From the NCBI GenBank assembly GCA_038997305.1, contig JAWAZZ010000001.1:44159-108158 (forward strand): a stretch of 64,000 bases of DNA, written 5' to 3'. Positions 10,478 to 56,843 of the stretch are shown in pieces. The stretch's first letter is position 1; each line of letters begins with the position of its first letter. Position numbers and translations under genes: made by a program. Under the pieces are notes generated by a model. That model did no database searches. It worked only from the letters and a program-made list of their open reading frames with translations, and was not told where the DNA came from. This DNA is from Candidatus Aenigmatarchaeota archaeon. GTDB lineage: Archaea > Aenigmatarchaeota > Aenigmatarchaeia > CG10238-14 > SpSt-28.

Positions 10478-13505
<3,028 letters not shown>

Positions 13506-15994: not shown

Positions 15995-16007
15995 AAAATA
16001 TATTCTT

Positions 16008-22135: not shown

Positions 22136-24193
22136 ATGATAAGTGAACAAAAATTAGAACAATTAAAAAAAGAGTTTTCGACATATTATTTGGAATTTTA
22201 TTTAAAAGAAATAGAAAAATCTGCAAGAAGAAACTGGTATGAAAAACTTTGTGCAATTTCTTCAAAAATTTTACCTATAAAGGCATATCCTAAAAAACTT
22301 TCAGAAACCATAATTTTTTCTAATTTGAATGTTTTACCGAATGAAGTTGTAAGTTTAACAATACTTTCTTTTTTAATTCTTTTTGGAGTTTCTTTAATTC
22401 TATATTTCATTTTTACTGATTTGGGAATTTTTGTTTTTGCTTTGCCAATAGGCATTTCATACATTCTATATACTTATCCAGATTTTAAGGCAAAAGTAAA
22501 TAGAATTCAAACAAATTCAGAAGCAATAAAAATAATTACTTATCTTGTTTTATATTTAGAAACAATTCCAAATTTTGAAGGAGCAATAGATTTTGCAGCA
22601 AGAAGAGTTAAAGGAATTATTAGCGATGATATGAAAAAAATTTCTTGGGATATTAGAACTGGAAAGTTTTCGACATTAAAAGAAGCATTAGAGCATTATA
22701 TTCCAAAATGGTTAAAATGGAATGAAAATTTTGTGAGAGCTTTAATTTTGTTATCAAATATATCTTATGTAACTTCTAGTGAAGAAAGAAAAACATTATT
22801 AAGAAAAACATTAGATTTTATTTTGGCAAAAAACTTAGAGGAAACGAAAATTTATGTAGAAAAAGTCAGAGGTCCTATAACTATTTTGTTTCTTTTTGGA
22901 TTATTGATGCCATCTATAGGTTTAATAATGTTTCCTATGATTTCTGTATTTTTGCATTTTAGCGTAAAACCATCTTACATAATTTTTGGATATTTGGTTG
23001 TATTACCTCTTATGAACTATTACTTAATAACTAGAGTAATTTCTTTAAGACCAGGAGCTTTTCTTATAGTAGATATATCTAAGCATCCAAAATTGCCTCC
23101 AGAGAATTATTTTTATTATGGAAATGTTTTAATACCCATAATACCTCTATCAATTTTAGTTTTTGCATTGGTTAGTTTTTATGGAATAAATCATATAGGA
23201 AATTTTTATATCGAGTTTAATAGGCAGCTAGAAATAAATCCTAAAAAAGCAGAGGAAATGCTAAGAGCCGAAAATAATATTCAAAACTATGCTGGCTTAG
23301 CTGCTAGCTTTTCCATAACATTAGGTTTTGGTCTAGCCGCTTTTTTATACTTTTATCTAAACTCTTTTCAAAAGGTAAGAATTAGAAAAGAAGTTAAGGA
23401 TATTGAAGAAGATCTACCAAACTTGTTAATTACTAGTGGAAATTTCTTAGAAGCTGGGTATCCTTTTGAAAAAACGATAGAAAAAACTTTGGAGGAATAT
23501 GAAAGATTAGGAATGAAAGAAAAAGCTGGTTATAAATTTTATTCTTTGTTAAAGGAGAGAATTGTAAAGTTTGGAGAAAACATATATGAAGCAATCTTTG
23601 GAAGTAATGGTTTGATTTTTTATTTTCCATCCGTTTTATTGGAAGAAGTCTTTAGAATAATAACTGAAACTTCTAAAAAAAGTGTTAGAAGCGCTGGAAC
23701 TATTGCTAAAACAATTTCTAGATATTTAGAAAATATTTGGCAAACAGAATTTAGATTGAAAGAATTATTGGCAGATGTTAGAGGAAATTTAAAAATGCAA
23801 GCTCAATTTTTAATTCCTATAATTACAGGAGTTATTAGTGCTACTGGAATTTTTATAATAAGTTTATTATCTTTCTTAGCAGATTACTTAAGTAGGTTTG
23901 AAAAAAGTTTCGGAATAACTTCAGGAATTTCTGAGGTTATTAATGTTATGGTCGGAGATTTTAAAAGAGTAATACCAATGCCTTTATTACAAGCCGTTGT
24001 TGGATGTTATACTGTAATAGCAATAATATTGATGTCTTACTTGCTTAGTGGAGTTGAAAATGGATTTGATAGAGTTGCTAGAGATGATGAAATTTCTCAA
24101 AACCTAAAGTTTGGTTTGATAATATACTTTATAATAGGAATAGCATCTCTAATAGTTTTTGCAAATATAATATCTTCTTTACAATTAACATAA
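22136..24193 (+). CDS. polytopic membrane protein, TadC/FlaJ/GspF-like platform protein candidate
   Basis: 685 aa built as (helical cytoplasmic domain + ~3 TM) x2, resembling type II/IV secretion F-domain platform proteins. Flanked by small N-terminal-TM proteins. The assignment is by architecture only. Confidence 0.4.
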   Translation: MISEQKLEQLKKEFSTYYLEFYLKEIEKSARRNWYEKLCAISSKILPIKAYPKKLSETIIFSNLNVLPNEVVSLTILSFLILFGVSLILYFIFTDLGIFVFALPIGISYILYTYPDFKAKVNRIQTNSEAIKIITYLVLYLETIPNFEGAIDFAARRVKGIISDDMKKISWDIRTGKFSTLKEALEHYIPKWLKWNENFVRALILLSNISYVTSSEERKTLLRKTLDFILAKNLEETKIYVEKVRGPITILFLFGLLMPSIGLIMFPMISVFLHFSVKPSYIIFGYLVVLPLMNYYLITRVISLRPGAFLIVDISKHPKLPPENYFYYGNVLIPIIPLSILVFALVSFYGINHIGNFYIEFNRQLEINPKKAEEMLRAENNIQNYAGLAASFSITLGFGLAAFLYFYLNSFQKVRIRKEVKDIEEDLPNLLITSGNFLEAGYPFEKTIEKTLEEYERLGMKEKAGYKFYSLLKERIVKFGENIYEAIFGSNGLIFYFPSVLLEEVFRIITETSKKSVRSAGTIAKTISRYLENIWQTEFRLKELLADVRGNLKMQAQFLIPIITGVISATGIFIISLLSFLADYLSRFEKSFGITSGISEVINVMVGDFKRVIPMPLLQAVVGCYTVIAIILMSYLLSGVENGFDRVARDDEISQNLKFGLIIYFIIGIASLIVFANIISSLQLT

Positions 24194-25458: not shown

Positions 25459-25459
25459 A

Positions 25460-27003: not shown

Positions 27004-30000
27004 TTGGAAAAGAAAGGATTCCAATTTAACTCTATCAACGATTGTCAAAAATTAGCAGATTTATTATATACTTCATTTTTACTTTCTTATGCTGATCTTG
27101 GAAACAAGCTCTTATCAGATATTATAAATTTTCAATTAACATTATCTTCAGCAATTTTAGAGGGTATTTTAAGGTATGCACAAGGCACAGCAGTTTTAGC
27201 TGGCACACAAACTAACACTAAGATATATTTGTTTAACGATATACATCAAAACGCAAGAAATTTTATATATGAGGTTGTTGAAATCTTAAAGGAAAATGGT
27301 TTGGAACCTGGAAAAGATTTTTGGATTGTGGAGAAAAAATTCAATGATTACGAGTACTATACTTTAGAATTCTCTAGTAATGCAAAAAATAAGATTAATA
27401 AGAACATTAAAATAATATTTGCTGGAGATGTTTTTGATAAGAGAGAAGGAGATATGGAAATGGACGAATTTAAAGAAAAACTCGATAAAAGAGTGTTAGA
27501 AAAACTCGATGAAAATGCTAAAAGTAATTTTTTCAAAAATCTAAATGTTTTAGGGGAGAAGAGGGAGGATATAGGTAAGAATTCGAGGATACTTTCTCAC
27601 ACAATTTTATCGATAATGGACAGTTTAGAAGAATTGTTAGGTAGTGACAATGTAATAAGATTATTAGGTAATCACGATGTTTATCAATACTATATAGTAG
27701 ATAGTGAGAGAGTGAAGAAACTTACGGTAACTATGTCTCATTCTATTCCTTTCACGAGGGGAAAAGATCTTGTTGAATATTACTGGAATAAAGGAAGGTT
27801 GATTTATGTTTATTATGAAGATGGAATTGTAAATATTTATACTAATTCCCAATCAGGATTTTTAATTAAGGAATTTTTAGAAAGATTAGCTAAGAGTTTA
27901 GAAGGCAAAAATTTAAACGAATTGAGTGAAAATGAGTTAAAAAGAATAATCAAAGAGGTTAGTGAAGAATTTGATAGAAATGCAAAATTTATTGCAGGTG
28001 AAAATAGTGAAGTTGGTATTGTGAAATATACATATGAAAGATTTATGAATTTTGAGGATGATGTGAACAAACAAACTACTGATGTGAATGATAATTTGAA
28101 TAAACTAAGTGAAATTATAAAAAAGAAATTTGGGAATAGGTTTAAATTTGTAATAATAACTGGACATACACCAGTCAGTTCGTTGAATTATTATTATTCC
28201 TCTCCGAATATTGATTTATTTATAACTGATAATCCAGAAAAGAGAGCTTCCAGGTCTCTGATAATTTTCGATAAAGAGAAAATTAGTGTGCGTGTTATTC
28301 CTCATGGCGTGGATTATTTTGTTAGTATTCAGAAACCCAAATTAAATGTGGGTGGAGGAGGTTTATCTTCTGAGGATGTTAAAAAAATTAAGAATACTAA
28401 AAGTCAAATAGATGTTGCTAGAGAGATAAATGGGGAAATTTCTAAGGCCGAAGAAGAAGTTGAAAAGGCTAAAACTATATCTGAGAGATTAGATGTACTT
28501 AAAAGAGTGTTTTCGAGACTTAAGGATTTCTTTTCTAAAAAATCACAAGAAGTTGATAGAGTTTTTATTGATCCCGAACCTACGCAAACTAGACCTATAA
28601 AGCAAGCATTAGATGCAAGCATACAAAAGTCAGAGGAAGGATTACGGGCAGTACAAAGTGGTAATTTAGAAGAGGCAAATAAGAAGTTTGATGAGATAAG
28701 GAAAGAATTTAAACAACTAGCAGAAAATATATTAAAAAATGCAGGTGATAGAATTCAAGAAGTATATCAAAAACTTCAGGGAAATTCTCAAGCGGAACAA
28801 AGTTTAAATAAAAATATTGAGGAATCCATACGAAATCAGCAATCTGAATTATCAAAACAAGGAGAGAATATCCAAAGAACAGCTGCATCGACAGATGTTG
28901 CAAAGAGCGTAACAGAAAGTACAGAAAAACTCGCTAGTTCTCAACTTTCTCAACAGGGGAGAAGTCTTTTACAAAAATTAAAAACATCTGTGAGCGCTTT
29001 TAAAACTTTTTCAACTACAATTAATAATTTAGCATCTAAAATCTCACCCCTTTTAATATTCGTACCTATGATAGAAATAGGCAGAAATTTAGAACTATAT
29101 GAAATCCCATATGGAGAAGAAGTTTCTTTGGCATTAACTCTTGGTGGTATAATTGGATTGACTTTGCAAACCATATTGGCAATTAAAATTGCATTGGAGG
29201 CAGGAATTCGCGTCGCATTAGCTGTTGTTATTACTGGACCTTTTGGTTGGTTAAGTCTACTTGTTTTAGCCGCAATAATAGTTGCTATTGGTGCATTTAT
29301 GTGTTTTATCTATGTTACTCAAAGAGGTGGCGGTGATTTTGGACAGTGTTTACTGTATGGTATATCTTTCGGTACTGCAAAATATTGCGACCTATACGCG
29401 GCAAAATACTATTTTAGAGATATTAATGATTTTGACAAAAAAACTGAAAAACAAAAACCATCTGAATATACTTACTTTACAGTTTTGTATCCAGACTATA
29501 GGGAAATAAAATTATATGCTGAAGGAATACCTAGGATAGGTACTGAAAAATGTCCTGCAGATAATTATCTTGGTCCTATAAAGGTTTATGAAGGTCATAA
29601 TTACTTTATCAGAATAAAGCATTTGGGTAGTAATATGGAAAGATATGATTTAACAAAGTTCATAGTAGAAAAGGATGGAAGTGGGAGAAGCGAGGGGACA
29701 TTTTGTTTAACTTCTAAATCAAGTTGTAGCAAAGATGCAACGGACTTTCCATTCGAAGTTGGAAAACAATATTTAGTCATAATAGATGAAAGAGGATGGT
29801 ATATTGTAGAACCCTTAGGTAGCGGAATTAAGAAGAGCGTTCCTGTTGGTGTTCTATACATTTATGAAAACAAAAATGCATGTAGTAATCTTGGCGGAAA
29901 ATGTGTAGATGTAAGTAAGGCACAAGATCCTAAGCAAATAATATATCACGGCGTTTGTAAGGCTGGTGAGATATGCATTAAAGAATGTAAGAGCGATTCA

Positions 30001-30588
30001 GATTGTAGTAGTGGATATTTCTGTGATGCTGGAATATGTAAATCGCGTATAGGAGAAGAAGTTAAAAAATGCAATTCGCAAGGAAAGGTTTATATTGGGC
30101 ACGAATCAGAAAACAACAAATGTTGTGAGAGAGAAAAAGTAAATGTTATGATATGTGAAGGTAGTGATTGTCCTACTTATTCTTTTAGAGCAGAAGAATG
30201 GATAACTCATAAAGATACTATTTTAGATTATTTGACAGGAAAGATAGATTATTCGCAATTCAGCAACTTAGTTAGTGCTGATGTAAGACTAAAGCTACTA
30301 CAATTACAATCTACAAAGAACATAATGTGCTGTGGAGATTGGAAAAAGTGTGTGTATAATGGAAAATGCTATAATGAAAATAGTGTAGAAAAAATTAATC
30401 AAAAAGATTTTGTTTGTAAATTAGGCAAATGGATACAAATAGACTCTTGTAAGATTAATAGGGCATACGTACAGAATAATAATTTAATTTTAGAAGTTTC
30501 TTTGGGTTGTGGCGGAATAATTTCTGGTAATCAAGTTAATGTAGGAATAGAATGTAAGAGGATTAATAAAGATGGCCAGTGTGTATAA
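27004..30588 (+). CDS. giant multidomain membrane protein: calcineurin-like metallophosphoesterase domain + ~300-aa coiled coil + TM hairpins + C-terminal Cys-rich domain
   Basis: Phosphoesterase motifs in canonical order: DIH, GDVFDKREG (GDxxDR), GNHD, GHTP. A long heptad-like Glu/Lys/Gln region follows. Hydrophobic block LTLGGIIGLTLQTILAIKIALEAGIRVALAVVITGPFGWLSLLVLAAIIVAIGAFMCFIYV. The C-terminal ~450 aa hold more than 45 Cys. The annotated start is TTG; see the frameshift note on the previous feature. Confidence 0.6.
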   Translation: MEKKGFQFNSINDCQKLADLLYTSFLLSYADLGNKLLSDIINFQLTLSSAILEGILRYAQGTAVLAGTQTNTKIYLFNDIHQNARNFIYEVVEILKENGLEPGKDFWIVEKKFNDYEYYTLEFSSNAKNKINKNIKIIFAGDVFDKREGDMEMDEFKEKLDKRVLEKLDENAKSNFFKNLNVLGEKREDIGKNSRILSHTILSIMDSLEELLGSDNVIRLLGNHDVYQYYIVDSERVKKLTVTMSHSIPFTRGKDLVEYYWNKGRLIYVYYEDGIVNIYTNSQSGFLIKEFLERLAKSLEGKNLNELSENELKRIIKEVSEEFDRNAKFIAGENSEVGIVKYTYERFMNFEDDVNKQTTDVNDNLNKLSEIIKKKFGNRFKFVIITGHTPVSSLNYYYSSPNIDLFITDNPEKRASRSLIIFDKEKISVRVIPHGVDYFVSIQKPKLNVGGGGLSSEDVKKIKNTKSQIDVAREINGEISKAEEEVEKAKTISERLDVLKRVFSRLKDFFSKKSQEVDRVFIDPEPTQTRPIKQALDASIQKSEEGLRAVQSGNLEEANKKFDEIRKEFKQLAENILKNAGDRIQEVYQKLQGNSQAEQSLNKNIEESIRNQQSELSKQGENIQRTAASTDVAKSVTESTEKLASSQLSQQGRSLLQKLKTSVSAFKTFSTTINNLASKISPLLIFVPMIEIGRNLELYEIPYGEEVSLALTLGGIIGLTLQTILAIKIALEAGIRVALAVVITGPFGWLSLLVLAAIIVAIGAFMCFIYVTQRGGGDFGQCLLYGISFGTAKYCDLYAAKYYFRDINDFDKKTEKQKPSEYTYFTVLYPDYREIKLYAEGIPRIGTEKCPADNYLGPIKVYEGHNYFIRIKHLGSNMERYDLTKFIVEKDGSGRSEGTFCLTSKSSCSKDATDFPFEVGKQYLVIIDERGWYIVEPLGSGIKKSVPVGVLYIYENKNACSNLGGKCVDVSKAQDPKQIIYHGVCKAGEICIKECKSDSDCSSGYFCDAGICKSRIGEEVKKCNSQGKVYIGHESENNKCCEREKVNVMICEGSDCPTYSFRAEEWITHKDTILDYLTGKIDYSQFSNLVSADVRLKLLQLQSTKNIMCCGDWKKCVYNGKCYNENSVEKINQKDFVCKLGKWIQIDSCKINRAYVQNNNLILEVSLGCGGIISGNQVNVGIECKRINKDGQCV

Positions 30589-31651
30589 CATTAGAAAAAT
30601 CAATATTGAAAAAGGTGGAAAAAACATAGCTTTAATTATTTTTATGTTTTTACTTTCCTTTACTTCTTTTGGTTTATCCCAGCAAAATATGTTAAAATGT
30701 ACTAATAATTATCTATTGGTTTCTTGTTTAGTAGATAATTGCTATTCTGGAGTGGTTATTGTCAATAATTCTTATGAAGTTTACACTATATCAATAGATA
30801 TAAATTCAAACTCATTTAATATTCAACCAAAAGGCAGTGAAATATTTTTTACGGTTATTTGTCAAGCTCCACAAAAAGTAGAAGAGTATAAGTATAAAAT
30901 AAATAATGTTATACTTTCGGATACATTCCAAAATGTTAATAACCAACTTATAGTTGGGAGAGGATGCTATAGCATAAGAACAGAAGTTAGTGGAAGCACT
31001 AGCTTTCTATATCTAGAAAAATATAGATATTCTGAAGGTGGATGTGAAGAAAGTCAAAAAGTTCAAACATTAAAAATTCCTTTGAAAAGCAAGGATGTGA
31101 TAATTCACGTAAATTGTAAATGCATAGAAAACAAAGGACTCTTATTGTCTATTGGAGATTTTGCTAGTGTAAACGAAGTAACATTAGCATCTTCAGATGA
31201 AGTAGTAATTTATTTGAAAAAAGGATGGAACATGATATCTAATCCGTCTGATAAGCCAATAACTTTAGAAGATTTTAGGAAAAGCGGATGTAATATTAGG
31301 TCTATTTGGAAATATGAAAACAAGAAATGGCAAAGACCTACTGAAATATCAAACGATGCAAAAGGTTATTTTGTTTATGCAACTAACGATTGTGTATTAA
31401 GAGTTAAAAAACCATCAAAATCGAATGTAATATTAACTAACGAACTTTCAATTACTTTACAAAAAGGATGGAATTTAATTAGAGGTATTGATGGGTTAAC
31501 TTGTGAAGATTTAGAGAGACTAGGATGTAAGTTATCATCAAAATCAAAAAACAAATGTTTTTGGATATATCAGAATAAGAAATGGGTAAGAACAAATGTG
31601 ACTGAGATGCTATATGGGTATTGGGTATATTGTAGAGAAATTGTTAAGTAA
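30572..31651 (+). CDS. secreted protein with N-terminal Cys-containing domain and two C-terminal ~62-aa aromatic GWN repeats
   Basis: Signal anchor ALIIFMFLLSFTSFGLS. C-terminal repeats LKKGWNMISNP...WKYENKKWQRP...KGYFVYATNDC and LQKGWNLIRG...WIYQNKKWVR...YGYWVYCRE. Confidence 0.6.
   Translation: MASVYNIRKINIEKGGKNIALIIFMFLLSFTSFGLSQQNMLKCTNNYLLVSCLVDNCYSGVVIVNNSYEVYTISIDINSNSFNIQPKGSEIFFTVICQAPQKVEEYKYKINNVILSDTFQNVNNQLIVGRGCYSIRTEVSGSTSFLYLEKYRYSEGGCEESQKVQTLKIPLKSKDVIIHVNCKCIENKGLLLSIGDFASVNEVTLASSDEVVIYLKKGWNMISNPSDKPITLEDFRKSGCNIRSIWKYENKKWQRPTEISNDAKGYFVYATNDCVLRVKKPSKSNVILTNELSITLQKGWNLIRGIDGLTCEDLERLGCKLSSKSKNKCFWIYQNKKWVRTNVTEMLYGYWVYCREIVK
31211..31640 (+). repeat. tandem pair of ~62-aa GWN(L)-W.YENGKW-GKGYW.Y modules (coding)
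   Basis: Protein-level repeat visible in the translation of 30572..31651. Confidence 0.6.
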
Positions 31652-31688
31652 TATGGATAAATATTTATTGTTAAACAAAATAATAATT

Positions 31689-34600
31689 ATGAATGGAAAA
31701 TTCTTAAATGTAATACTATTTTTAATTTTCTTTTTGAGTTTTGGTATAGTTTATTCTGAAAATTATGTTTTAAGTCTTAAAAAGGGATGGAACTTGATTT
31801 CGATACCCTTAGCTCCATCTAATATAGAGTCTGTAAAATGTGATATATCTTCTATTTGGTCATATGAAAACGGTAAATGGAAAAAATTGAGTAATATTAA
31901 TCAGTTAGTTCCTGGTAAAGGTTATTGGATATATGTTAGAAGTGCTACATGCGATATCGTTATCTATGGAGATAGAATAAATTATAATCCAATAGAAAAA
32001 TTAAGTAAAGGATGGAATTTAGTTGGTATTGGTTCTAATGAAATATATGTTAAAGATTTAAAAAATGTTTGTAAAAATATTACTAGAATTTGGAGTTATG
32101 AAAATGGCAGATGGATAAAATTAAATGATGATGATAAATTAATTCCTGGTAAAGGATATTGGATATATAGTAGAGATGAATGTGATTTAGGAAGAAGCAA
32201 GTTTGTAGGTTCTTCTAGTTGTCAATGTTATGATAATCTTAAAATAAATCCGGATAAAACTACATTTTCTCCTGGAGAAACTATAAATTTCGAAAGTGTT
32301 TGTGGTGATCAAGGAAATCTTATAACAATAGTTTTGAAAGATCCTAGTGGTAGTCAAAAAGCATCTGCATATTCTACTTGTCCTAGTCCAACTAGTAAAG
32401 CAAGCGGTAGTTATACATTTAAATCTACTGATCCTGCAGGAACTTGGAAATTAATAATGGATGTGAGTGGAGTTACTTGTGAGCATTGTGAAAAAGAAAT
32501 AACATTGCAAGGAACACAACAACAATGTAGTGTATCAGTATCTAATATAAATATTCAACAAACAAATACACCTACTTGTGGTCAATCAGCAACACTTTCA
32601 GTATCTATATCTGGTACAGCAACAAATTGCCAATCTTTAAAAGCAGAAATTTATGAAGATCAAACTTTATTAAAAACAATATCATGTAGCATTTCGAATA
32701 ATAATTTACAATGTTCTGACACATTAACTTTAACAGTCTCTTCTAATAATCAAGAAGCAGACTTTGATATAGTAATTAAAGATAGTAATAACAATGAAAA
32801 GGCTAGAAGTCCTAAGAGAATTACATTACAATGTCAATCACAACAACAATGTCAAGTAACTTTAAATTCGTTATCTCTAAATCCATCATCCACGAACCAA
32901 TGTGGTCAATTAATTCCATTAACTATAACTGTTAGTTATTCAGCTAGTGGAAATTGTCAAAACAAATATATTACAGTTTATGATCATGATAATAATGTTT
33001 TAGGTTATATTCCAATAGATACTTCTAAAACAAGTGGCTCATTAAATTTAAATACTTACAACGTTCCTTCAAAAAGTGATAAATATTTAATTTGGGCCTT
33101 AGCAGAAGGTTCCTCACAACAAGTTTCTGCATATTTAGATGTTCAATGTCAATCACAACAACAATGTCAAGTAACTCTTAATTCATTATCTCTAAGTGAA
33201 TCAACAGCACAATGCAATCAACAAATTTCATCATTAACAGCAACTGTTAGTTATTCAGCTAGTGGAAATTGTCAAAATCAAAACATAATAGTTTATAAAC
33301 CAGATGGAAGTGTTTTGTGCAATATTCCAATAGATACTTCCAAAAATAGCAATTCATGTTCAGCTAGTTATACTGCTCCATCGCAAAGTGGTATACATAC
33401 ATTCAAAGCTGTTTATGGAACTCAAGAAAAAACAGCAAGTTTAAATGTTCAATGTCAAAGTCAAGAAACTAAAATAGAAGTTTCTATAACTGCAGATAAA
33501 ACAACTTCTTATGTTAGAGACAAAATTAAAATAAGAGCAACTGCAAGATTCACCAATCTAAAAGAAACAGGAACATATGAGTTGTGGATATGTAGAGAAG
33601 GGTTATCATATTGTTTAGCATCTGCTGCAAAGGTTTGCACAGATTCAAATTGTCTTAGAGAATTAGAGCAAAACGGTCTAACAAAAGAATATGAAGCTAC
33701 TTCAGATTGTAGCGGAAGTTATAAATATTATGCAAAAGTTTATTTAGGAACTGATAAAGAACTTGCCAAGAGTAATCCAATAGAAGTTAATTTTAAGCTT
33801 CATGAAGGTTTAAAGATAGATGAATTAAAAGTTGAACCTCCAAAAGCAGATTCAGAGCAAAAAATAATAATAACTTTAAACCCAGATACATATAGAATAC
33901 TAAATGAATATTATTGTGAAGGATGTAAAGGTTTTAATACAGGTGATTATTTTGTATCAGTACCAGAATATTATGATCCTAATGGAAATAAAGTACAACT
34001 TTTGATACCAGCTTGTAACGAAAATGATATAAGACAAAACAATGGTAAGTGTGTAATAGATAAGTATTTTAGTGGTAGTCCACTTAAACTGTTTAATAAA
34101 CCAGGAACATATAAAGTAAGGGCAGTTTTAATGAGAGAGTGTGTAAGAGATGCTACTACTACAGAAAAGTTGACCGAAGGTTGGTTTACTGTAACAATTT
34201 CTTCACAAAATTGTGTTGTTAACATCTCTGAGGTTAAAGTTGAAAAAGTAGATTCTAATATACCAAATTGTGGCCAAACTATAAATTTGAAATTCACGGT
34301 TAATGGAAAGCATACTTCTTGTTCTAGTAGCGATATCGCTGCAATAATTTACGAAGGTTCTAGTGAGATTGGAAAATTACAATGTAATGTAAATAATGAT
34401 GGTACATTTAGATGCGAAGGACAACTTCAATATAAGATAATAGTTTCAGGAACCAAAACATTCAAAGCAAAAGTTCTTGATAAAGAAAAAGAGAGTAATC
34501 AAATAGATTTATCTTGTCAACAACAGCAACAACAATGTACATCTGGTCAAACAAAATGCGAAAATAACAAATTATACGAATGTGTTAATGGACAATGGCA

Positions 34601-35339
34601 AGACAAAACTCCTTCGTGTCCACAGGGTCAACAGTTTGTATGTGTAGATCAAACGCGTGGAGAATGTAGACAACAGCAACAACAATGTCAATTAAAATCT
34701 GTAAATATAGAAAGTGTTAGACAATTAACAAAATGTGATGGGACAAAAGTTAGATACGAAGTAACTGTTTTTACAGATTATGAAAATTGCGAACAAATGC
34801 CTAAGGTAACTCTAGAATATGGAAGAAAAGATCAATTAAGACCTTCTAAAACACAACAACCAAAATCTGTTAGTAATGATGGAAAGAGAGCTATTTTTGA
34901 GGTAGAAATTAGTGGAGTTAGACATGGAACGCAGGTTTTCTTTAGAGCAACTGCTGAAATTTCTGGTCAACAGAAATCTACTGTCGATGAAGAAAGAACT
35001 GTAAATTGTTATGTAGAAGAAGATACATATAAATGTATTGTCGATAACAACAGGGTAAAAATAGTAGCTTCTAACAACCAAGTTATATGGGAAAAAGAAA
35101 ATACACAGACCATTTCATACTATTGTAAAAAAGAGAGTATAAGTGCTAGAAAAGGTATAACATCTAGTGATGGTGATTTTGAAGATTTCTTGAATGCTTT
35201 AGTTGGAGCAAGAAAAGTTTTTACTTGCAGTTTTTCAAACGGAAGGATAGAATGTAATATTGGTAATTTAAATGTGAGAGGTAGCACTGTTTGTATTCTA
35301 GTAGACAATAATAATGCTATATGTAAAACAGTTAGTTAA
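31689..35339 (+). CDS. giant secreted Cys-rich modular surface protein (2 GWN repeats, four ~104-aa Ig-like tandem repeats, Gln-runs, Cys6 knot repeat)
   Basis: Signal peptide MNGKFLNVILFLIFFLSFGIVYS with start at ATG 31689 (31653 is also possible). It contains the modules listed separately below. Confidence 0.65.
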   Translation: MNGKFLNVILFLIFFLSFGIVYSENYVLSLKKGWNLISIPLAPSNIESVKCDISSIWSYENGKWKKLSNINQLVPGKGYWIYVRSATCDIVIYGDRINYNPIEKLSKGWNLVGIGSNEIYVKDLKNVCKNITRIWSYENGRWIKLNDDDKLIPGKGYWIYSRDECDLGRSKFVGSSSCQCYDNLKINPDKTTFSPGETINFESVCGDQGNLITIVLKDPSGSQKASAYSTCPSPTSKASGSYTFKSTDPAGTWKLIMDVSGVTCEHCEKEITLQGTQQQCSVSVSNINIQQTNTPTCGQSATLSVSISGTATNCQSLKAEIYEDQTLLKTISCSISNNNLQCSDTLTLTVSSNNQEADFDIVIKDSNNNEKARSPKRITLQCQSQQQCQVTLNSLSLNPSSTNQCGQLIPLTITVSYSASGNCQNKYITVYDHDNNVLGYIPIDTSKTSGSLNLNTYNVPSKSDKYLIWALAEGSSQQVSAYLDVQCQSQQQCQVTLNSLSLSESTAQCNQQISSLTATVSYSASGNCQNQNIIVYKPDGSVLCNIPIDTSKNSNSCSASYTAPSQSGIHTFKAVYGTQEKTASLNVQCQSQETKIEVSITADKTTSYVRDKIKIRATARFTNLKETGTYELWICREGLSYCLASAAKVCTDSNCLRELEQNGLTKEYEATSDCSGSYKYYAKVYLGTDKELAKSNPIEVNFKLHEGLKIDELKVEPPKADSEQKIIITLNPDTYRILNEYYCEGCKGFNTGDYFVSVPEYYDPNGNKVQLLIPACNENDIRQNNGKCVIDKYFSGSPLKLFNKPGTYKVRAVLMRECVRDATTTEKLTEGWFTVTISSQNCVVNISEVKVEKVDSNIPNCGQTINLKFTVNGKHTSCSSSDIAAIIYEGSSEIGKLQCNVNNDGTFRCEGQLQYKIIVSGTKTFKAKVLDKEKESNQIDLSCQQQQQQCTSGQTKCENNKLYECVNGQWQDKTPSCPQGQQFVCVDQTRGECRQQQQQCQLKSVNIESVRQLTKCDGTKVRYEVTVFTDYENCEQMPKVTLEYGRKDQLRPSKTQQPKSVSNDGKRAIFEVEISGVRHGTQVFFRATAEISGQQKSTVDEERTVNCYVEEDTYKCIVDNNRVKIVASNNQVIWEKENTQTISYYCKKESISARKGITSSDGDFEDFLNALVGARKVFTCSFSNGRIECNIGNLNVRGSTVCILVDNNNAICKTVS
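31775..32195 (+). repeat. tandem pair of ~62-aa GWNL-W.YENGKW-GKGYW.Y modules (coding); about 95% nt-identical to 41530..41862 over ~335 nt
   Basis: LKKGWNLISIPLAP...IWSYENGKWKKL...GKGYWIYVRSATCDI and LSKGWNLVGIG...IWSYENGRWIKL...GKGYWIYSRDECDL. The nucleotide comparison was done by eye. Confidence 0.7.
32510..33760 (+). repeat. four tandem ~310-nt (~104-aa) coding repeats, each beginning QCQSQQQCQV / QQQCSV
   Basis: Repeat starts near 32516, 32829, 33144 and 33449, with conserved ends and variable middles. The TVSYSASGNCQN core recurs. Confidence 0.6.
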
Positions 35340-35379: not shown

Positions 35380-36087
35380 ATGTTGAACATCAGAGGCTTA
35401 AAAGGTTTTACTGCGATAGAAATTGTCTTTCTAATTTTTATTTTAATAGTTGTCGTGTTAGTTGTAATTCAAATGATTACTAGATATGTTAATCCAGGAA
35501 AAATTAATCCTTATATTGAAAATATAGAAGAATTAGCGAAAAAGGATTATATGAGGCAATATTGTGATAATTTGTGCAATTCTATTAAAACTGCTACTAG
35601 TGAAAGAGAAAGATTGTTTGCAATGGCAAGATGGTGTATGGAAAATATAAAAGACAGAGGAAAAGATTATATAGATATAATTGAAGATGGAGTAAAAGGA
35701 TTTTATGTTATTGGTGGTTTACCTTATTGTGAAGCTGGCACATATTGTTTTCATTTCTTCTCTTGCGATGTAGGAATAACTTTGGATTTAAAGGAATGTA
35801 GGAGAATTCTTTGCGAATATTATACTCAACAATTGGGAGATACAAAAAAGGCTAGCGAGGCTATAGTAAATATCATAAACTGGGGAAAATGTAATGTCAA
35901 CAAAGAACAATTATCTGGTAAACCATTGCTTTACTCAAGCGCTAGATGGTGGTATGATAAATATTTTAACATAACAGATGAAAATGGCGAACTCAAAGAT
36001 TTTTGTAGCGTTCTCATAGCTGGTGGAGATATAGAGGGAATAGTTAGCGAAGGTGAAGAGGAAGGCTCTCCTCCAATGCCATCATAA
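35380..36087 (+). CDS. type IV pilin-like protein (class III signal peptide) with Cys-rich globular domain
   Basis: MLNIRGLKG|FTAIEIVFLIFILIVVVLVVIQ has the canonical prepilin cleavage motif (Gly-1, Phe+1, Glu+5, then a ~20-aa hydrophobic helix). A ~190-aa domain with about 10 Cys follows. Confidence 0.55.
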   Translation: MLNIRGLKGFTAIEIVFLIFILIVVVLVVIQMITRYVNPGKINPYIENIEELAKKDYMRQYCDNLCNSIKTATSERERLFAMARWCMENIKDRGKDYIDIIEDGVKGFYVIGGLPYCEAGTYCFHFFSCDVGITLDLKECRRILCEYYTQQLGDTKKASEAIVNIINWGKCNVNKEQLSGKPLLYSSARWWYDKYFNITDENGELKDFCSVLIAGGDIEGIVSEGEEEGSPPMPS

Positions 36088-36154: not shown

Positions 36155-38380
36155 ATGGTGAAATTAATAAACTTACAAAAATCAAAAATATTTTTCCTTC
36201 TTACCATTCTAATATTTAATCTGTTTGTTTTCTCTTATTCTTTTTCTCAAGAAGGTTTAACTATAACATTGAAAAAAGGATGGAATCTAATTTCTTTACC
36301 AGCTGAAGATATAAAAATTAAAAATACAAATTGTGACATTAGGTCGATATGGGCATATGAAAACGGCAAATGGAATAAGTTATCTTCTTTGGAAAATTTG
36401 AGAGTTGGAAAAGGTTATTGGGTATATGTAAGAAACGATTGTGAAATTAATTTTGAAGGAAGTTTTGTAATTGGAACAACATTAGAAAACATAACAAAAG
36501 GATGGAATTTAGTTGGTGTTAATTCTGAAATCTTTGTAAGTAGATTAAAAGAGATATGTCCTACAGTAAGAACTGTATGGTCATATGAAAATGGTAAATG
36601 GATAAAATTAAAAGATGATGATAAATTAGTTCCTAATAAGGGATATTGGGTATATTCAAACGGATATTGTGATGTTAGAAAATCTTCCTTAGAAAAAATT
36701 ACAAGGGAGGTTTCTCCCAAATTATCTCAAGTCGTTATGCAGGATCTACAGAATACAAATAAAATTGCTTCTATTCCAGCTATTCTTTTGTTGGTTCCTG
36801 ATGTTGTGGATCAGCTTAATACAGAAGTCTCAGTAGTATTAATATCTAGAATGATTTTCAAAATACCTTATGATGCATTTCCTTTAACACTTAAAGTCAA
36901 AAATTATAGAGGTTTTGATATTTGTGAAAGAAATATAAGAAGCTTTGATGAACTTTTTAGAATTTTTGGCTTAGATATAATAAATGTTTGTTCTTTCATA
37001 GTAAAAGATCAATCATATGAAGGTGCTTATGAATTGTTTGTATTTGATAGGAGCAACAACTTAATATTTAATGTAAAGTCTATTTCAGAACTAAAAATAG
37101 GTAAAGAAACAACTTATCCAACAGAAGAATGTAAGATATCTTATTTTGTAGTGAATTCAACAACTATCGATTGTAAGAGTGATAAACATCCTATAATTAT
37201 TAAATTTAATGCTAGCAAGGAATGCGTAGGAAAGGAAGTTAGAATACAGATCATACCAGAAGCAAGACTAATAGGTCCATTGTCAAAAGGTGTTATTATT
37301 AGGAGTTTTAATAAATCATTTGAAGTTTGCAAATTTAAGATAGAAAAAGTTGGAGAAAATACGGTAAGATGTGAAATTAATGTTTCTGCTTTGAAAGAGC
37401 ATCTAAAAGGAGAGATAGATGAAAAAATGTTAGGAGAGGCATATGTACTAGTAAGGGCAGATTATGAAGGATTAGGTAATTACAGATATATAGGAAGGGT
37501 AGGTATATTACCTGAATGTTTCAAAACAAGTAATTGTGAGGTATCTATAAAGGGAAAGGTTGTAAATGCAGATGTGAGAAATTGTGGTGATTTGACTAAA
37601 TTGGACTTTTATGTAGATATGTCTGTGAGATATAAACAGGGGGAGCGAGACTCTTGCCCAAACAAATATGAAATTTATATATTAGATTCGGGTGAAGTTT
37701 GGAATAATGTTGGTAAAGGTGAAATAGATCTTGGAGATTTGCAGCCAACTCCACCACTAGAAGAAAATGGTTATGAAAGTCTGTTCGGAAGTCTAACTAT
37801 ACCTGCTAAGACTATTGTAACATACAATGGTCAGAAAAAAGAATTTATGATAGTGGTTGTTGGAGTCTTTGAAAATGAAAGAGGAATGCCAAAGAAAGTC
37901 ATATTGGCTAACACAACATTAACGTATTTTGCTGAATGTTTAAAATGTAGAGTAAAAGAAGCAAAATTAAGTTTAGATCCAAGTGAAATAACAACTTGTC
38001 CATTTAAAGTAAAAGCTAAAATTGAGGCAGAAGTTGAGAATTGTTGGAAAGATTCAGTGATTGTTGCAAGAGTATATAAACTTGACAAATTTATGCATTC
38101 AATAGATGATAAATTAGAGGTTTGTAAAGCGACAAAAACATTGTCAGATCTCGAATCAAATCCACCATCATTACCAGAAGATAAGACACCACCTTCTGTG
38201 AGTGGAAAAGTAACACTATCTTGCGAATTTTATGTTAAGACAGAAGCAGATAGTGGATATTATTTTGCCATAACAGGTAATGGAGTATCTAATTTAGCAT
38301 TCTTAAATGTAACCTGTGAAAACATAAGAAGAAGACCAATAGTTCCAGAACCTCTTTCTACAGTATTGAATATAAGATAG
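36155..38380 (+). CDS. large secreted surface protein with two N-terminal GWNL repeats
   Basis: Signal peptide MVKLINLQKSKIFFLLTILIFNLFVFSYSFS. Repeats LKKGWNLISLPAED...IWAYENGKWNKL...GKGYWVYVRNDCEI and ITKGWNLVGVN...VWSYENGKWIKL...NKGYWVYSNGYCDV. Confidence 0.6.
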   Translation: MVKLINLQKSKIFFLLTILIFNLFVFSYSFSQEGLTITLKKGWNLISLPAEDIKIKNTNCDIRSIWAYENGKWNKLSSLENLRVGKGYWVYVRNDCEINFEGSFVIGTTLENITKGWNLVGVNSEIFVSRLKEICPTVRTVWSYENGKWIKLKDDDKLVPNKGYWVYSNGYCDVRKSSLEKITREVSPKLSQVVMQDLQNTNKIASIPAILLLVPDVVDQLNTEVSVVLISRMIFKIPYDAFPLTLKVKNYRGFDICERNIRSFDELFRIFGLDIINVCSFIVKDQSYEGAYELFVFDRSNNLIFNVKSISELKIGKETTYPTEECKISYFVVNSTTIDCKSDKHPIIIKFNASKECVGKEVRIQIIPEARLIGPLSKGVIIRSFNKSFEVCKFKIEKVGENTVRCEINVSALKEHLKGEIDEKMLGEAYVLVRADYEGLGNYRYIGRVGILPECFKTSNCEVSIKGKVVNADVRNCGDLTKLDFYVDMSVRYKQGERDSCPNKYEIYILDSGEVWNNVGKGEIDLGDLQPTPPLEENGYESLFGSLTIPAKTIVTYNGQKKEFMIVVVGVFENERGMPKKVILANTTLTYFAECLKCRVKEAKLSLDPSEITTCPFKVKAKIEAEVENCWKDSVIVARVYKLDKFMHSIDDKLEVCKATKTLSDLESNPPSLPEDKTPPSVSGKVTLSCEFYVKTEADSGYYFAITGNGVSNLAFLNVTCENIRRRPIVPEPLSTVLNIR
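36265..36680 (+). repeat. tandem pair of GWNL aromatic repeat modules (coding)
   Basis: See the 36155..38380 translation. Confidence 0.65.
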
Positions 38381-38417: not shown

Positions 38418-40652
38418 ATGAGGAGAGTATTTTTTGTTTTTTTAGCTTTATTTTTAGTATTTTCATTATCAAATTTTTCTTATTCTTCGGAATGCGCAGC
38501 ATACTTGCTTAATTCTTGTGAATTTTCAGATAGGTATGAGTGCAGTTCTGTAAGTTTAGTCAGCGAAAGCGGCTTAGAATATAGAAGACATTACATAAGT
38601 GATAAAGATATAGCCCCTATTTCAATTGCTATAGATAGATATGGAAATGCTTGGATAGGAACAAAGGAAAATGAAATAGTTAAAATAAATTTTGATTGCA
38701 AAAATAATATAGATTCTGACGGTGATGGAAAAGTGAGTATTAGTGAAATGAATGACATAAAAGACGATAAGTGTATAGAGCTAAGATTAAAACTTCCTTG
38801 TAAAAAAATTAATTCTGTTTGCATCGATTTTATTAATGATTTTTTGTATGCTGGATGTTATGATTCAAAACTATTTTATAGAATATCTTTAGATGGCGAA
38901 ATTTTAAAAAGTTGGAAATTAGATTATGGACCTTTTAATTGTGTTGTAGACGATGCATCTAATGTTTGGATTTCTACATTGTCAAAAAACTTAATAGAAA
39001 TAAACTTTGAATCAGATAAACCAGAATATTATAAAGTTAGTGACAAAACATATAGTATTTCTAAATGTAAAGATAAAGATTGTCTAATAATAACTTCTGA
39101 AGAAAGTGGCAAAGTATTAATATTTAACACATCATCTAAAAAGGTAACTTTAGAGAGGAAAATTTCTTCTTATGCAATTTCTTCCATTTCTGATGATAAT
39201 TTTATTTATTTGTTGGATAGCAAAGAGGGGAAAATATACAGGCTCGATTTTAATTTAAACATATTGAATAATTTAGATATATGTAAATGGCCAATATCTG
39301 TTTCTATTGATTCTTGTAATAATGTTTGGATTATTTGTAGCGAGGAGTTATTAATATTATCTAAAGATTTTTCGAAAATAAACAAATATTCTATATCTTC
39401 TTCCAGGTTTTTTATTTCTGATTTTACTGGGTATTATTCTAATGCAAATATAAGAATAGAGCAAAAAAGTTTGCAAAAATTCAGAGATAACGATGGCAAA
39501 TGCGAAATAGATAAGGGAGAAAATTGTGCAACATCTCCTAATGATTGTAGTTGCGGAAATGGTAAAATTTGTTGTATTAACGATCCAAAAAAAGATGAAA
39601 GGGGTTGTACAAACAGAAAAGCTAAAGAAGGAGAAGAATGTTATTGTAGCTCTCAATGTTTAGATAATCTGAATTGCAATCCGGTAGCTCCAAATTTCAA
39701 TAAATATAGTAGAGCTTGTTGCCCTGCCGGAAAAGTTTGGAATGGAACACATTGCACAGAAAGCGATTTACTTAGTTTTTGTCCTAAAGATACTAACTGT
39801 AAATCTTTTTGGCCGAACAAGCAAGGAAAATTATTATCTATAAACGAAGAAAATTATGCTTGTGATTTATTTGAAGTTTGTCATCCATATGTTCAAAGTA
39901 TAGCAAGAGAAGCCTTTGAATGTTGTTCAAAGGAGTGCAATTCTAATTGTCACTCTTATTGTAAAGAAGCTTTAGAATATTCTGGTTATAACAAAGAAAA
40001 AACTTATGAAAGATTAAAGTTTTGTATGGGACTATACATAACTTCTGGATTTGGCCCAGCAAAAAGATTTATGATAGGTTATAATGATGCTGAAATTTGT
40101 TGTGGAGCGAAATATTTTCCAGATAATAATATTAGAGATGTTTTAGAAGGTGTTTGTAAATCTGCTTATGGGGATAGTTTTATTGGCAAATGCGAACCTA
40201 AAATAGAAAATACTGGTCTAAAAGATTTAGAATGTAAAGAAGCAGTAAGTAAATATCCTTTGGGATGGAAAAGCGATAATAATATGAAAGAAAATAGCTG
40301 TATATTCTCTGATTTGCCTGCTCATGTTACTCTAAACTTTATAAAAACTGGAATATGTGTAGATTATTCTGTTGCGTTAACTTCTGCATTAAGAGCTGCT
40401 GGGTATTCTTCGAATGAAGTTTATACTGTTGTGGCACCTGGACATGCTTATAATTTAGTTCTATTTCCTCTAAATGAAAAATATACTATAGTAGATACTA
40501 CTGCCAATTATCCAAATAATTGGCGTCCGGGTCAGCAGCCAGGAAAGTATAACTTTGGAAATATTATGAAAAGTAGATGTGAATACGAGCAATGTATGAA
40601 TGATAATGGTATATTAACTTGTCCACCCAAAAATTTAGTTTATGGTTGCTAA
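38418..40652 (+). CDS. secreted beta-propeller-like + Cys-rich + C-terminal transglutaminase-like (Cys-His-Asp) domain protein
   Basis: Signal peptide MRRVFFVFLALFLVFSLSNFSYS. The N-terminal half is homologous to the middle of 16008..17798, including the EF-hand loop DSDGDGKVSISEM. The Cys module GEECYCSSQCLDNLNCNPV...ACCPAGKVWNGTHC is shared with the metzincin. The C-terminal triad is GICVDYS ... GHAYNLV ... IVDTT. Confidence 0.65.
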   Translation: MRRVFFVFLALFLVFSLSNFSYSSECAAYLLNSCEFSDRYECSSVSLVSESGLEYRRHYISDKDIAPISIAIDRYGNAWIGTKENEIVKINFDCKNNIDSDGDGKVSISEMNDIKDDKCIELRLKLPCKKINSVCIDFINDFLYAGCYDSKLFYRISLDGEILKSWKLDYGPFNCVVDDASNVWISTLSKNLIEINFESDKPEYYKVSDKTYSISKCKDKDCLIITSEESGKVLIFNTSSKKVTLERKISSYAISSISDDNFIYLLDSKEGKIYRLDFNLNILNNLDICKWPISVSIDSCNNVWIICSEELLILSKDFSKINKYSISSSRFFISDFTGYYSNANIRIEQKSLQKFRDNDGKCEIDKGENCATSPNDCSCGNGKICCINDPKKDERGCTNRKAKEGEECYCSSQCLDNLNCNPVAPNFNKYSRACCPAGKVWNGTHCTESDLLSFCPKDTNCKSFWPNKQGKLLSINEENYACDLFEVCHPYVQSIAREAFECCSKECNSNCHSYCKEALEYSGYNKEKTYERLKFCMGLYITSGFGPAKRFMIGYNDAEICCGAKYFPDNNIRDVLEGVCKSAYGDSFIGKCEPKIENTGLKDLECKEAVSKYPLGWKSDNNMKENSCIFSDLPAHVTLNFIKTGICVDYSVALTSALRAAGYSSNEVYTVVAPGHAYNLVLFPLNEKYTIVDTTANYPNNWRPGQQPGKYNFGNIMKSRCEYEQCMNDNGILTCPPKNLVYGC

Positions 40653-41322
40653 AACGTTTTTATTTATCTTTTTGCTATTGATTTTTTCTAGCTTTGTTTA
40701 TTCTTGTATAAATGTTAATAAGACTTCTAATGTAACTATAGCAAAAACTAACGAAGCAATTGAAATTAAAATATTTATAGAAAACAAATGTGAAAAAGAT
40801 AAAGAGATTACAATTGTTGAGGACGTTTTTGGTGACGTTATTTATCCTAGAGAAAATTTAGTCTTTTACAATACTTCCGAAAAAGTTTTTATTTGGAGAT
40901 CTCCTCAATTGATTTGGAAAAATATTAACTTGGAGGCAAATCAGAAAATAAGCATTAGCTACGTAATTTATTTTGATACAGTAGATAAATTTGTAATTCC
41001 TCCTACAAAGGTTTTAGATGAAAGCGGTAATGTTTATAACTCTAATTCCATTGAAATAAAAATTGAATGTAATAGGAATGGGATGTGTGAAAAAATGTAT
41101 GCAGAGAATTATGTAAATTGTCCAGAGGATTGTAAAGTAAGTAGTGAAGATGGTATTTGTAGTGGGTATGTTAATGATCCTGACTGTAAGACTCAAATAA
41201 AAACAGAAGAGAAAAAGGAAGAAAATTTTTTATTCTACGTTTTCGTAATATCTTTAATTGTTTTATCTGTTTTGCTTGTGTTATACAGATTTGTTATAAG
41301 AAAAACTTTAACTAAATCTTAA
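40642..41322 (+). CDS. secreted protein with C-terminal TM anchor
   Basis: Signal peptide MVAKTFLFIFLLLIFSSFVYS and C-terminal TM FLFYVFVISLIVLSVLLVLYRFVI. Overlaps the upstream gene by 11 nt. Confidence 0.5.
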   Translation: MVAKTFLFIFLLLIFSSFVYSCINVNKTSNVTIAKTNEAIEIKIFIENKCEKDKEITIVEDVFGDVIYPRENLVFYNTSEKVFIWRSPQLIWKNINLEANQKISISYVIYFDTVDKFVIPPTKVLDESGNVYNSNSIEIKIECNRNGMCEKMYAENYVNCPEDCKVSSEDGICSGYVNDPDCKTQIKTEEKKEENFLFYVFVISLIVLSVLLVLYRFVIRKTLTKS

Positions 41323-45021: not shown

Positions 45022-45111
45022 AAATTTATTTCTAAAAAATATAAATTCAATTTGTTATATTAGATAAAAAAATTTAGAAAGGTATTTATATCTTGCTTGG
45101 GTAAATATATA

Positions 45112-46056
45112 ATGGTAAAGATAAAACTGGATATATGGAAGATATCCACTTTCGTTTTGTTAGTTGCGCTGATTATAACTCTGTACTATAGTAATTTTTC
45201 ATCTAGCTTAGGTTTTTTTGCATTAAAGAACAATCAAAATGCCAATGAAATAGGTAAAAAGGTTATAGATTATATTAATAAAAATTTAGTTCAACCTGGA
45301 ACATCAGCAAGTTTAAAGGATGTAAAGTTTGATTCTTCTTTGGGACTATATGTTGTTACCACAGAATATCAAGGCAATGAAATTCCTGTATATGTTTCTC
45401 CTAATGGAAACTTTTTAATTCTAGGTAGTGTATTAGATATGAGTAAGCAGTTAAATTTGGCTTCTCAATCTCAACAACAAATTCCAAAGTCTGATAGACC
45501 AAAAGTAGAACTATACATATTTTCATATTGTCCGTATGGAGTGCAGGCTCAATCTGCGTTTATAGAGGTAGCCAAAGCAATGAAGGATTATGCCGACTTT
45601 TATGTGAGATTCTTTAGTCATATGCATGGAGAGTTTGAAAGGCAACAAAACATGATTCAAGAGTGTATAATTAGAATGTATCCTCAGAAATATTGGGATT
45701 ATGCAAAAATCTTTGTCGAAGAGATTTATAATAAGTGCTATGGGAATGTGACGTGTGATAAAGAAGAAAGTATTAAAGCTATGCAAAGAGTAGGAATAAA
45801 TGCTACAGAAATATTAAATTGTGTACAAACAAAGGGTAGCGAATATTATAACGAAGATATTAAGCTTGCAGAAAATTTAGGATTAACTGGTTCACCATCA
45901 TTTGTAATAAATGGAGTATATGTTAGTAATGTTGTAAGAACCCCAGATGGGATTAAAAATGTAGTTTGTCAAGCATTTAATAATCCACCAGCAATTTGTA
46001 ATCAAACATTAGGTTCGAGTTCATCAGTTTCTACAGCACCAGCGGGAAGTTGTTAA
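45112..46056 (+). CDS. membrane-anchored thioredoxin-fold thiol:disulfide oxidoreductase (DsbA-like)
   Basis: N-terminal TM. CPYG active site in YIFSYCPYGVQAQSAF. C-terminal GLTGSPSFVINGVYV resembles the DsbA cis-Pro region. The track start is TTG, so I moved it to the ATG. Confidence 0.55.
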   Translation: MVKIKLDIWKISTFVLLVALIITLYYSNFSSSLGFFALKNNQNANEIGKKVIDYINKNLVQPGTSASLKDVKFDSSLGLYVVTTEYQGNEIPVYVSPNGNFLILGSVLDMSKQLNLASQSQQQIPKSDRPKVELYIFSYCPYGVQAQSAFIEVAKAMKDYADFYVRFFSHMHGEFERQQNMIQECIIRMYPQKYWDYAKIFVEEIYNKCYGNVTCDKEESIKAMQRVGINATEILNCVQTKGSEYYNEDIKLAENLGLTGSPSFVINGVYVSNVVRTPDGIKNVVCQAFNNPPAICNQTLGSSSSVSTAPAGSC

Positions 46057-56836: not shown

Positions 56837-56843
56837 TTTTAAA

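Follow-up and report, generated by a model that had tools for sequence, protein, structure and literature searches.

DPANN archaea live attached to host cells. Their pilus loci contain unannotated signal-peptide proteins that have been interpreted as diverse pilins, and the 'dark matter' islands described by Makarova, Wolf and Koonin in 2019 (Fig. 2A; PMC6393860) combine a TadC-like gene with many divergent-pilin candidates and large surface proteins. In Aenigmarchaeota, type IV pili have been reported only from metagenome-assembled genomes (MAGs) of thermal habitats (PMC8407114). The present work deals with a gene (35380..36087, + strand) that codes for a 235-aa protein with a prepilin-like N-terminus and a Cys-rich head, referred to here as the 10-Cys protein. 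It is found in a stretch of 64,000 nucleotides from a Candidatus Aenigmatarchaeota archaeon (assembly GCA_038997305.1, contig JAWAZZ010000001.1, positions 44,159 to 108,158 of the forward strand), which is the window in which all positions are given unless another locus is named. The context of this gene, with a TadC-like gene, many candidates for divergent pilins and large surface proteins, agrees both with the islands, which were described in general terms, and with the pili of thermal-habitat Aenigmarchaeota.

At the level of the N-terminus, the closest described proteins are those of the QxSxE type, including the Methanococcus Epd pilins and the 'system 1 / clade 1' filaments; the Pfam model PF04021 (Class_IIIsignal) represents this archaeal QxSxExxxL class, in which the Methanococcus proteins are processed by EppA. 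System 1 filaments have been reported in methanogens and DPANN, and the primary Epd pilin (arCOG06620) has no C-terminal globular domain (bioRxiv 10.64898/2026.04.22.720090). Like these proteins, the 10-Cys protein has a short, positively charged leader with K-G or K-A as its last residues, and its family also has a small residue at +3, Leu or Ile at +4, Glu at +5 and a hydrophobic helix of ~20 residues. It differs from them in scoring below PF04021, in having Phe and not Gln at +1 and in the variable −1 position of its close subfamily, and it differs from the Epd pilin in its head, an α-rich domain of 160 residues and 10 Cys, and in that no EppA gene was seen in the sequence examined. Bacterial type IVa pilins and pseudopilins (PF07963; PilA, ComGC/ComGE, GspG) also have G(−1), F(+1), E(+5) and a hydrophobic α1-N, whereas the 10-Cys protein has no significant N_methyl match, lacks a head made of α1-C and a β-sheet, and belongs to a family and a genomic context that are archaeal; N-methylation has never been observed with archaeal peptidases (PMC6098224). 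Another likeness is to the bindosome sugar-binding proteins of Sulfolobus, or 'functionalized TFF' (type four filaments; Sivabalasarma and Albers 2026), in which a pilin-type N-terminus is carried by a non-pilin domain, presumably for display on a pilus scaffold. In contrast to the bindosome proteins, the 10-Cys head does not have the fold of a substrate-binding protein, and its gene lies in a pilus locus and not beside an ABC transporter. In archaea, many proteins whose functional domains are not those of pilins carry class III signals (bioRxiv 10.64898/2026.04.22.720090). A literature search yielded no description of the 10-Cys family.

Compared with these systems, the 10-Cys protein, with its uncharacterised head, is a conserved component of a filament-like system of type IV in DPANN archaea, and it is probably an archaeal type IV pilin-like protein. 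An earlier reading of the locus from its letters (the original prediction) had proposed a pilin or pseudopilin, which is supported by homology and by context. In the proposed mechanism, the class III signal would direct insertion of the protein by Sec, and an archaeal PibD- or EppA-type prepilin peptidase would cut it after Gly9, so that the mature protein would begin at Phe10. Its hydrophobic helix, which is almost invariant and bears Glu at +5, would pack in the core of a pilus, or of a short pseudopilus, that the neighbouring TadC/FlaJ-like platform protein would build together with an ATPase whose gene lies elsewhere. The head (residues 55-215) would be displayed outside the cell at the end of a flexible tether that contains Pro, and it is probably locked by five disulfides that a nearby DsbA-like enzyme could form. 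Because the head is not classical and the gene is a single-copy one, conserved beside many pilin-like genes, we think that the protein does not make up the bulk of the fibre but serves as a minor or functional subunit. The system probably serves the attachment of the DPANN symbiont to its host or to a surface.

The N-terminus and its protein family

The first-start-to-stop open reading frame (ORF) has exactly the limits and the length of 235 aa that had been predicted, and the positive N-region, Gly at −1, Phe at +1, Glu at +5 and hydrophobic helix of ~20 residues that had been noted are all present in its translation. The N-terminus reads MLNIRGLKG-FTAIEIVFLIFILIVVVLVVIQMIT, in which R5 and K8 are positive and G9, F10 and E14 occupy positions −1, +1 and +5. 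From this sequence and from the column counts of the family, residues 1-9 (MLNIRGLKG, 35380..35406, + strand), with K(−2) and G(−1), would constitute the leader to be removed, and the N-terminal hydrophobic helix (aa 10-33, FTAIEIVFLIFILIVVVLVVIQMI, 35407..35478, + strand), with E at +5, follows directly; in AlphaFold2 (AF2) models this helix spans residues 12-36. The hydrophobic run, of ~22 residues, has the top N-terminal hydropathy among the window ORFs (Kyte-Doolittle, KD, 3.65), and the protein is the sole match to [KR]G[FMLIVQ]xxxE plus a hydrophobic stretch among the 127 window ORFs of at least 60 aa. It also matches a FlaFind-like pattern (K8-G9, then F10 and 22 hydrophobic residues). 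A second ORF of the window (56811-58214) has a FlaFind-like N-terminus, MKRG followed by IISLILIIFVFNLLIV, and gives weak DUF11-like matches. Substrates of signal peptidase I have an h-region of 7-15 residues that is followed by a small-x-small cleavage site. In the 10-Cys protein, the h-region of ~22 residues is too long for such a substrate and it is followed by TRYVNPGK, where no AxA-like site was recognised by eye, which argues against processing by this peptidase.

A word-indexed search retrieved 24 clusters of close homologs, with 47-98% identity, in whose alignment FTAIE, the helix that comes next and the Cys are almost invariant. Wider relatives were collected by a profile search in a space of 1.84 billion representatives, which gave 249 clusters (50% identity level) at E <= 1e-3, of which 118 reached E <= 1e-10. 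The family to which the gene belongs, with 249 clusters or more, is unannotated, and it is a constant part of a pilus-like gene set that extends from hot-spring Aenigmatarchaeota to high-GC relatives. Ten family clusters were looked up and no functional name was found among them, except for a Woesearchaeota protein that is named for an extra cohesin domain. The nearest named homologs belong to MAGs of Ca. Aenigmatarchaeota or Nanoarchaeales, a scan of species-representative genomes with the close alignment gave 5 matches, all in hot-spring Ca. Aenigmatarchaeota MAGs, and the named relatives in the family are all DPANN archaea. A partial homolog (P0024, 55% identity) is labelled as Ignisphaera sp., a crenarchaeon of the sort that hosts DPANN symbionts, and this label may reflect mis-binned symbiont DNA or a link with the host.

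The motif is conserved throughout the family. In an alignment of 107 sequences, on which all the family counts are based, K occupies position −2 in 75, and position −1 is G in 62 and A in 14 (76 together); position +3 is A (45), S (36) or P (18), position +4 is L (74) or I (29) and position +5 is E in 91 and Q in 10. Position +1 is more variable, with Q in 34 sequences, E in 19, F in 12, I in 10 and L in 9. The resulting consensus is [KR]-K-[G/A] followed by x-x-[A/S]-[L/I]-E and a hydrophobic helix, and typical N-termini are MKKG followed by QMSLEMIIGLLILLVVA and MRKG followed by INALELVF. The Pfam model matched by most members is PF04021 (13 of 107 at E <= 0.1, best E 4.8e-4), and the N-terminus of one of them (P0078), when searched alone, reaches 25.0 bits, over the gathering score of 23.7. 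The assignment of the 10-Cys protein itself to class III rests on its homology to the members that pass PF04021. The prepilin-type signal that had been predicted on a pilin-like protein is thus borne out by the motif of the family, by the PF04021 matches of its members and by the homologs that are located in pilus loci.

The predicted signal had also been called bacterial-style, and this part of the prediction is not supported. The sequence KG/FTxIE (the slash marks the predicted cleavage site) does resemble that of bacterial type IVa pilins, there is a weak match to the N-terminal part of ComGE and one homolog carries the name ComGC, given by the Joint Genome Institute (JGI). Phe(+1), however, is present in only 12 of the 107 sequences, the bacterial N_methyl model is matched by 2 of them, at E ~0.05, and not by the 10-Cys protein, and the best-matching signal model is the archaeal PF04021. 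The named homologs, all from DPANN archaea, and the associated platform protein, pilins and ATPase, all of archaeal type, point in the same direction, and the head matches no bacterial pilin fold. Glu(+5) is absent from many, though not all, archaeal substrates (PMC3387779). Since Gly(−1) and Glu(+5) are native to the archaeal class and Phe(+1) is a trait of the subfamily, the bacterial style is a resemblance that implies no relationship, and KG/FTxIE in an archaeon is no evidence for a bacterial-type pilin. It is highly improbable that the protein is a bacterial-type pilin or pseudopilin gained from bacteria, processed by PilD and N-methylated.

The Cys-rich head

The AF2 model built with the 107-sequence alignment (mean predicted local distance difference test, pLDDT, 89.3; predicted template modelling score, pTM, 0.76) shows the helix (residues 12-36), a tether of lower confidence (37-54), a head (55-215) and a disordered acidic tail. 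In the gene, the Pro-containing tether that joins helix and head corresponds to aa 34-54 (35479..35541, + strand; pLDDT ~72), the globular head to aa 55-215 (35542..36024, + strand) and the C-terminal tail, which is acidic and ends in PPxP, to aa 216-235 (36025..36084, + strand; low pLDDT). Most close homologs keep the acidic run followed by PP.P, and there is no C-terminal transmembrane segment. The head is modelled as a compact, mostly α-helical domain with a small β-hairpin, at a pLDDT of ~95. It had been predicted to carry about 10 Cys, and the count in the protein is exactly 10 (residues 62, 66, 86, 117, 123, 129, 140, 145, 171 and 209), each of them conserved in 95-107 of the 107 family sequences. 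No structural relative of the head was found among solved folds, solved pilins included, and a search of PDB sequences with the family profile gave no significant match. Modelled with confidence and unlike any solved structure, the head lends itself well, as a clearly delimited object, to studies of structure and localisation that address the contact between symbiont and host.

The ten conserved Cys, together with a syntenic gene for a DsbA-like protein, suggest that the head contains five extracytoplasmic disulfides. This gene (45097..46056, + strand) codes for a DsbA/DsbC_N-like thiol-disulfide oxidoreductase (Pfam DSBA, E 6e-6; DsbC_N, E 6e-5), it lies downstream of the homologs of the 10-Cys gene in L005, L006 and L007 (related loci are given here by L numbers and family members by P numbers), and homologous-looking ORFs are present in L009 and L011. 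It is plausible that its product is the oxidant for the many extracytoplasmic Cys encoded in the region, a functional link that would follow from its domain matches and position.

The different parts of the protein are not equally conserved. Among close homologs, pairwise identity is 84% in the N-terminal helix, which is the most conserved segment, versus 57% in the head, and in the whole family the values are 43% and 27%, with the tether (13%) as the least conserved segment. A helix more conserved than the head is expected from packing in a filament core and is not expected from a plain membrane anchor, and the pattern as a whole fits a helix constrained by packing that would carry its head on a flexible stalk.

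The pilus-type gene set and the processing of the protein

The window encodes a TadC/FlaJ/PilC-like platform protein of 685 aa (22136..24193, + strand), recognised by its homology to proteins of L001 and L017. It is 64% identical, over the full length, to the product of L001 6122-8155, which passes the Pfam model T2SSF (27.7 bits versus a gathering score of 25.2), and 27% identical (E 2e-79) to a platform-like protein of L017 that is encoded next to a T2SSE ATPase; the protein of 22136-24193 itself has no Pfam match. It is followed by four small pilin-like genes (24195-24554, + strand; 24541-25020, 25024-25467 and 25460-25993, − strand), the products of which were identified by their N-termini, short and polar and followed by a hydrophobic helix of ~20 residues (e.g., MKLLAINVVF..; the likely start of 25024-25467 is at MKLLAIN), and also lack Pfam matches. 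Small pilin-like genes are syntenic with the homologs of the 10-Cys gene in L001-L004 and L006-L011. Pilin-like N-terminal helices are also present in a VWA protein (13572-14963; Pfam VWA, E 9e-8), a propeller-like protein (15951-17798; weak Pfam SGL), a Cys-rich reprolysin-like protein (18490-19872, − strand; weak Pfam Reprolysin_3) and the products of three further genes (19869-20390, − strand; 20420-21748; 21745-22131), and genes of these kinds accompany family members in L001, L003 and L017 too. The VWA and propeller-like proteins have in common an identical N-terminal block of 111 aa, which includes the helix, and an identical C-terminal block of 132 aa, and they differ in their centres (VWA versus β-propeller-like), an arrangement that suggests a recent duplication in which a cassette was exchanged.

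This association is maintained in the relatives. The homolog directly abuts the block of TadC-like and small pilin genes in L001, L003 and L004. In the 83%-identical relative (L006 and L007; also in L008) the gene is located between rpL24 and rpS9-L13-L18e, in a locus where genes for a TadC-like protein and for small pilin-like proteins (~120, ~160, ~140 and ~177 aa) closely precede it and a DsbA-like gene closely follows. Further away in the family, P0060 adjoins a T2SSE ATPase (E 1e-35), a T2SSF protein and canonical KG/VSPL archaeal pilins, and L017, with 68% G+C, contains two tandem family members beside a T2SSE ATPase, a homolog of the platform protein of the window, a VWA protein with a pilin-like N-terminus and a reprolysin-like protein; the loci in which a T2SSE ATPase lies next to family members are L014 and L017. 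The association with pilus-type genes therefore spans lineages from 27% to 68% G+C, and the presence of the same kinds of genes in the window, in L017 and in the relatives indicates that the family is a constant part of one DPANN filament-like system.

These data bear on the idea that the 10-Cys protein is a membrane-anchored, Cys-rich ectoprotein unrelated to pili (a receptor, or a redox, lipid-binding or host-binding protein) whose N-terminus resembles that of pilins by coincidence. The head fold without known relatives, the location of the gene among ribosomal protein genes in several relatives and the region rich in A/T, apparently its own, that precedes the gene in the window would agree with such a protein, but the family is accompanied by TadC-like, ATPase, VWA and pilin-like genes in lineages of 27% to 68% GC and it conserves the class III motif as a whole, making this explanation improbable.

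Several results weigh against a processed, filament-building protein. A pilin-type head is a β-sheet or Ig-like domain packed on the C-terminal half of α1, in a helix that in classical pilins continues into the head; the model of the 10-Cys protein has instead a helix that stops at residue 36, a tether and a mostly α-helical head with no relative among solved pilins. Neither the full protein nor its N-terminus alone matches PF04021 at E <= 10, and N_methyl is not matched either (Pfam/NCBIfam at E <= 0.1; N-terminus alone at E <= 10), the only matches being a sub-threshold one to the N-terminal part of ComGE (E 0.0034) and one to TadF at noise level. Prepilin peptidases follow a Gly/Ala rule at −1. 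In the close subfamily, Gly occupies this position in 12 of the 24 sequences, that of the window included, and in nine of the 24 it is replaced by Leu (5), Gln (2), Val or Met, bulky residues that do not fit the rule. Altogether, G, L, Q, S, A, T, V and M are found ahead of the invariant FTAIE, after an invariant K/R(−2), and the neighbouring small pilin-like genes are equally variable ahead of their motif (MK[L/G/C/S]IAIE). Finally, Pfam scans that covered the 10-Cys gene, its eight neighbours and 30 further ORFs detected no Peptidase_A24 and no T2SSE ATPase in the 64-kb window, and ~293 kb of related loci, which represent a minority of each genome, likewise yielded no prepilin peptidase.

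The peptidase was also sought by other means. No membrane protein with a peptidase-like GxGD motif is encoded by the remaining unannotated ORFs of the window, and a screen of the related loci for GxGD in multi-transmembrane proteins retrieved only TadC-like proteins and a GYGD protein, read from this motif as a K+ channel. The unannotated multi-transmembrane ORFs near the homologs gave no peptidase in Pfam. No pilus machinery was found in the ~10 kb past the left end of the window, seen in a related record, or in the ~4 kb past its right end, seen in a similar contig, and a prepilin peptidase is not mentioned in the supplements of the Aenigmarchaeota genome paper. Makarova et al. in 2016 described two nanoarchaeal genomes with a secretion ATPase and without a prepilin peptidase (PMC4858521).

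Such genomes would be in line with an uncleaved protein, and the 10-Cys protein could be a membrane-anchored accessory of the same machinery, with a signal anchor like that of FlaF/FlaG in the archaellum or of assembly-platform partners and a head located at the base of the apparatus. The variable −1 residue, in the close subfamily and in the small pilin-like neighbours, is what mainly gives weight to this possibility, to which can be added the peptidase missing from the window and from the related loci, and a head that is tethered in the model and not packed on the helix. However, the canonical K-G/K-A site and E(+5) are kept in the 10-Cys protein and in most of the wider family, and an anchor would have no reason to keep them; the strong conservation of the helix also fits packing between helices better than anchoring in lipids. 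An uncleaved accessory is consequently a serious but unlikely alternative, and a pilin-like protein remains the preferred explanation.

The giant Cys-rich neighbours

The 10-Cys gene is located, as had been predicted, between two giant genes, with an ORF of 1241 aa before it (31614-35339) and one of 741 aa after it (36155-38380). Two secreted Cys-rich proteins with tandem modules are encoded upstream (30572-31651 and 31614/31689-35339, + strand), as recognised by the location of the modules and by Sec-type signal peptides; they contain 14 and 58 Cys, respectively, and have weak Ig-like Pfam matches. Position 31689, the start that had been noted for the larger one, is an internal Met ahead of the Sec-type signal peptide and is probably the true start. 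Downstream (all on the + strand) there are four more secreted Cys-rich proteins, two of them with tandem modules (36155-38380 and 41358-43775) and two others (38418-40652 and 40642-41322). The tandem pair of ~70-aa modules present in four window proteins (30572, 31614/31689, 36155 and 41358) follows the pattern KGWNL[IV]S..C..IW.YENGKW...GKGYW[IV]Y..C, found in secreted Cys-rich proteins, and it occurs also in L010 (9487-9969) and L011 (7212-9965 and 11801-12214); in the window the modules read KGWNLIS...IWSYENGKW...GKGYWIY. This GWNLIS module is not convincingly matched by any Pfam model, a search of PDB sequences gave no relative, and it may be a docking or anchoring domain. Long identical stretches are shared by the module copies of 31614 and 41358.

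The original prediction had tied the 10-Cys protein to these genes, as a pilin or pseudopilin that presents or anchors their products. A Cys-rich or module gene, large in most cases, adjoins the homolog in L002, L005, L009, L010, L011 and L012 (in L010 the neighbour is a 160-aa protein that consists of the module only), and this adjacency in six lineages speaks for the tie. Against it, the upstream and downstream genes for secreted Cys-rich proteins are absent from the locus of the 83%-identical relative, which has no giant genes beside its copy, and the four module genes are absent also from L001 and L003. The pairing is frequent and not obligatory, the predicted tie is weakly supported, and an anchoring or presenting role for giant adhesins is possible from this arrangement. 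The 10-Cys gene is better assigned to the pilus-type set than specifically to these giant genes. A more elaborate version would have the 10-Cys head as a new fold that is conserved for docking, or as the tip subunit, in a pilus with which DPANN archaea attach to their hosts; it would receive interchangeable giant adhesins through their tandem GWNLIS modules, and the sublineages with bulky −1 residues would either use a peptidase of unusual specificity or remain uncleaved; taken together, this proposal is rather doubtful.

Two other large proteins of the region deserve mention. The product of 38418-40652 (744 aa, secreted, 49 Cys) gives a weak propeller signal and a weak match to the transglutaminase core (E 0.011); transglutaminase-like surface peptidases have been linked to clade 1 archaeal pili (Makarova et al. 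2016, PMC4858521). The gene 27004-30588, which is absent from the locus of the closest relative, codes for 1194 aa, with a weak calcineurin-like phosphoesterase region at the N-terminus and then a long charged region, taken to be a coiled coil, that is followed by hydrophobic segments and a Cys-rich C-terminal part. One window protein has an exact match in another assembly, GCA_044343115.1. An archaeal large subunit (LSU) rRNA gene (10479-13504, Rfam) is solitary, with no second rRNA gene in the 64-kb window at the Rfam gathering threshold. It has 53% G+C in a window of ~27% G+C, a combination typical of thermophiles whose genomes are rich in A and T.

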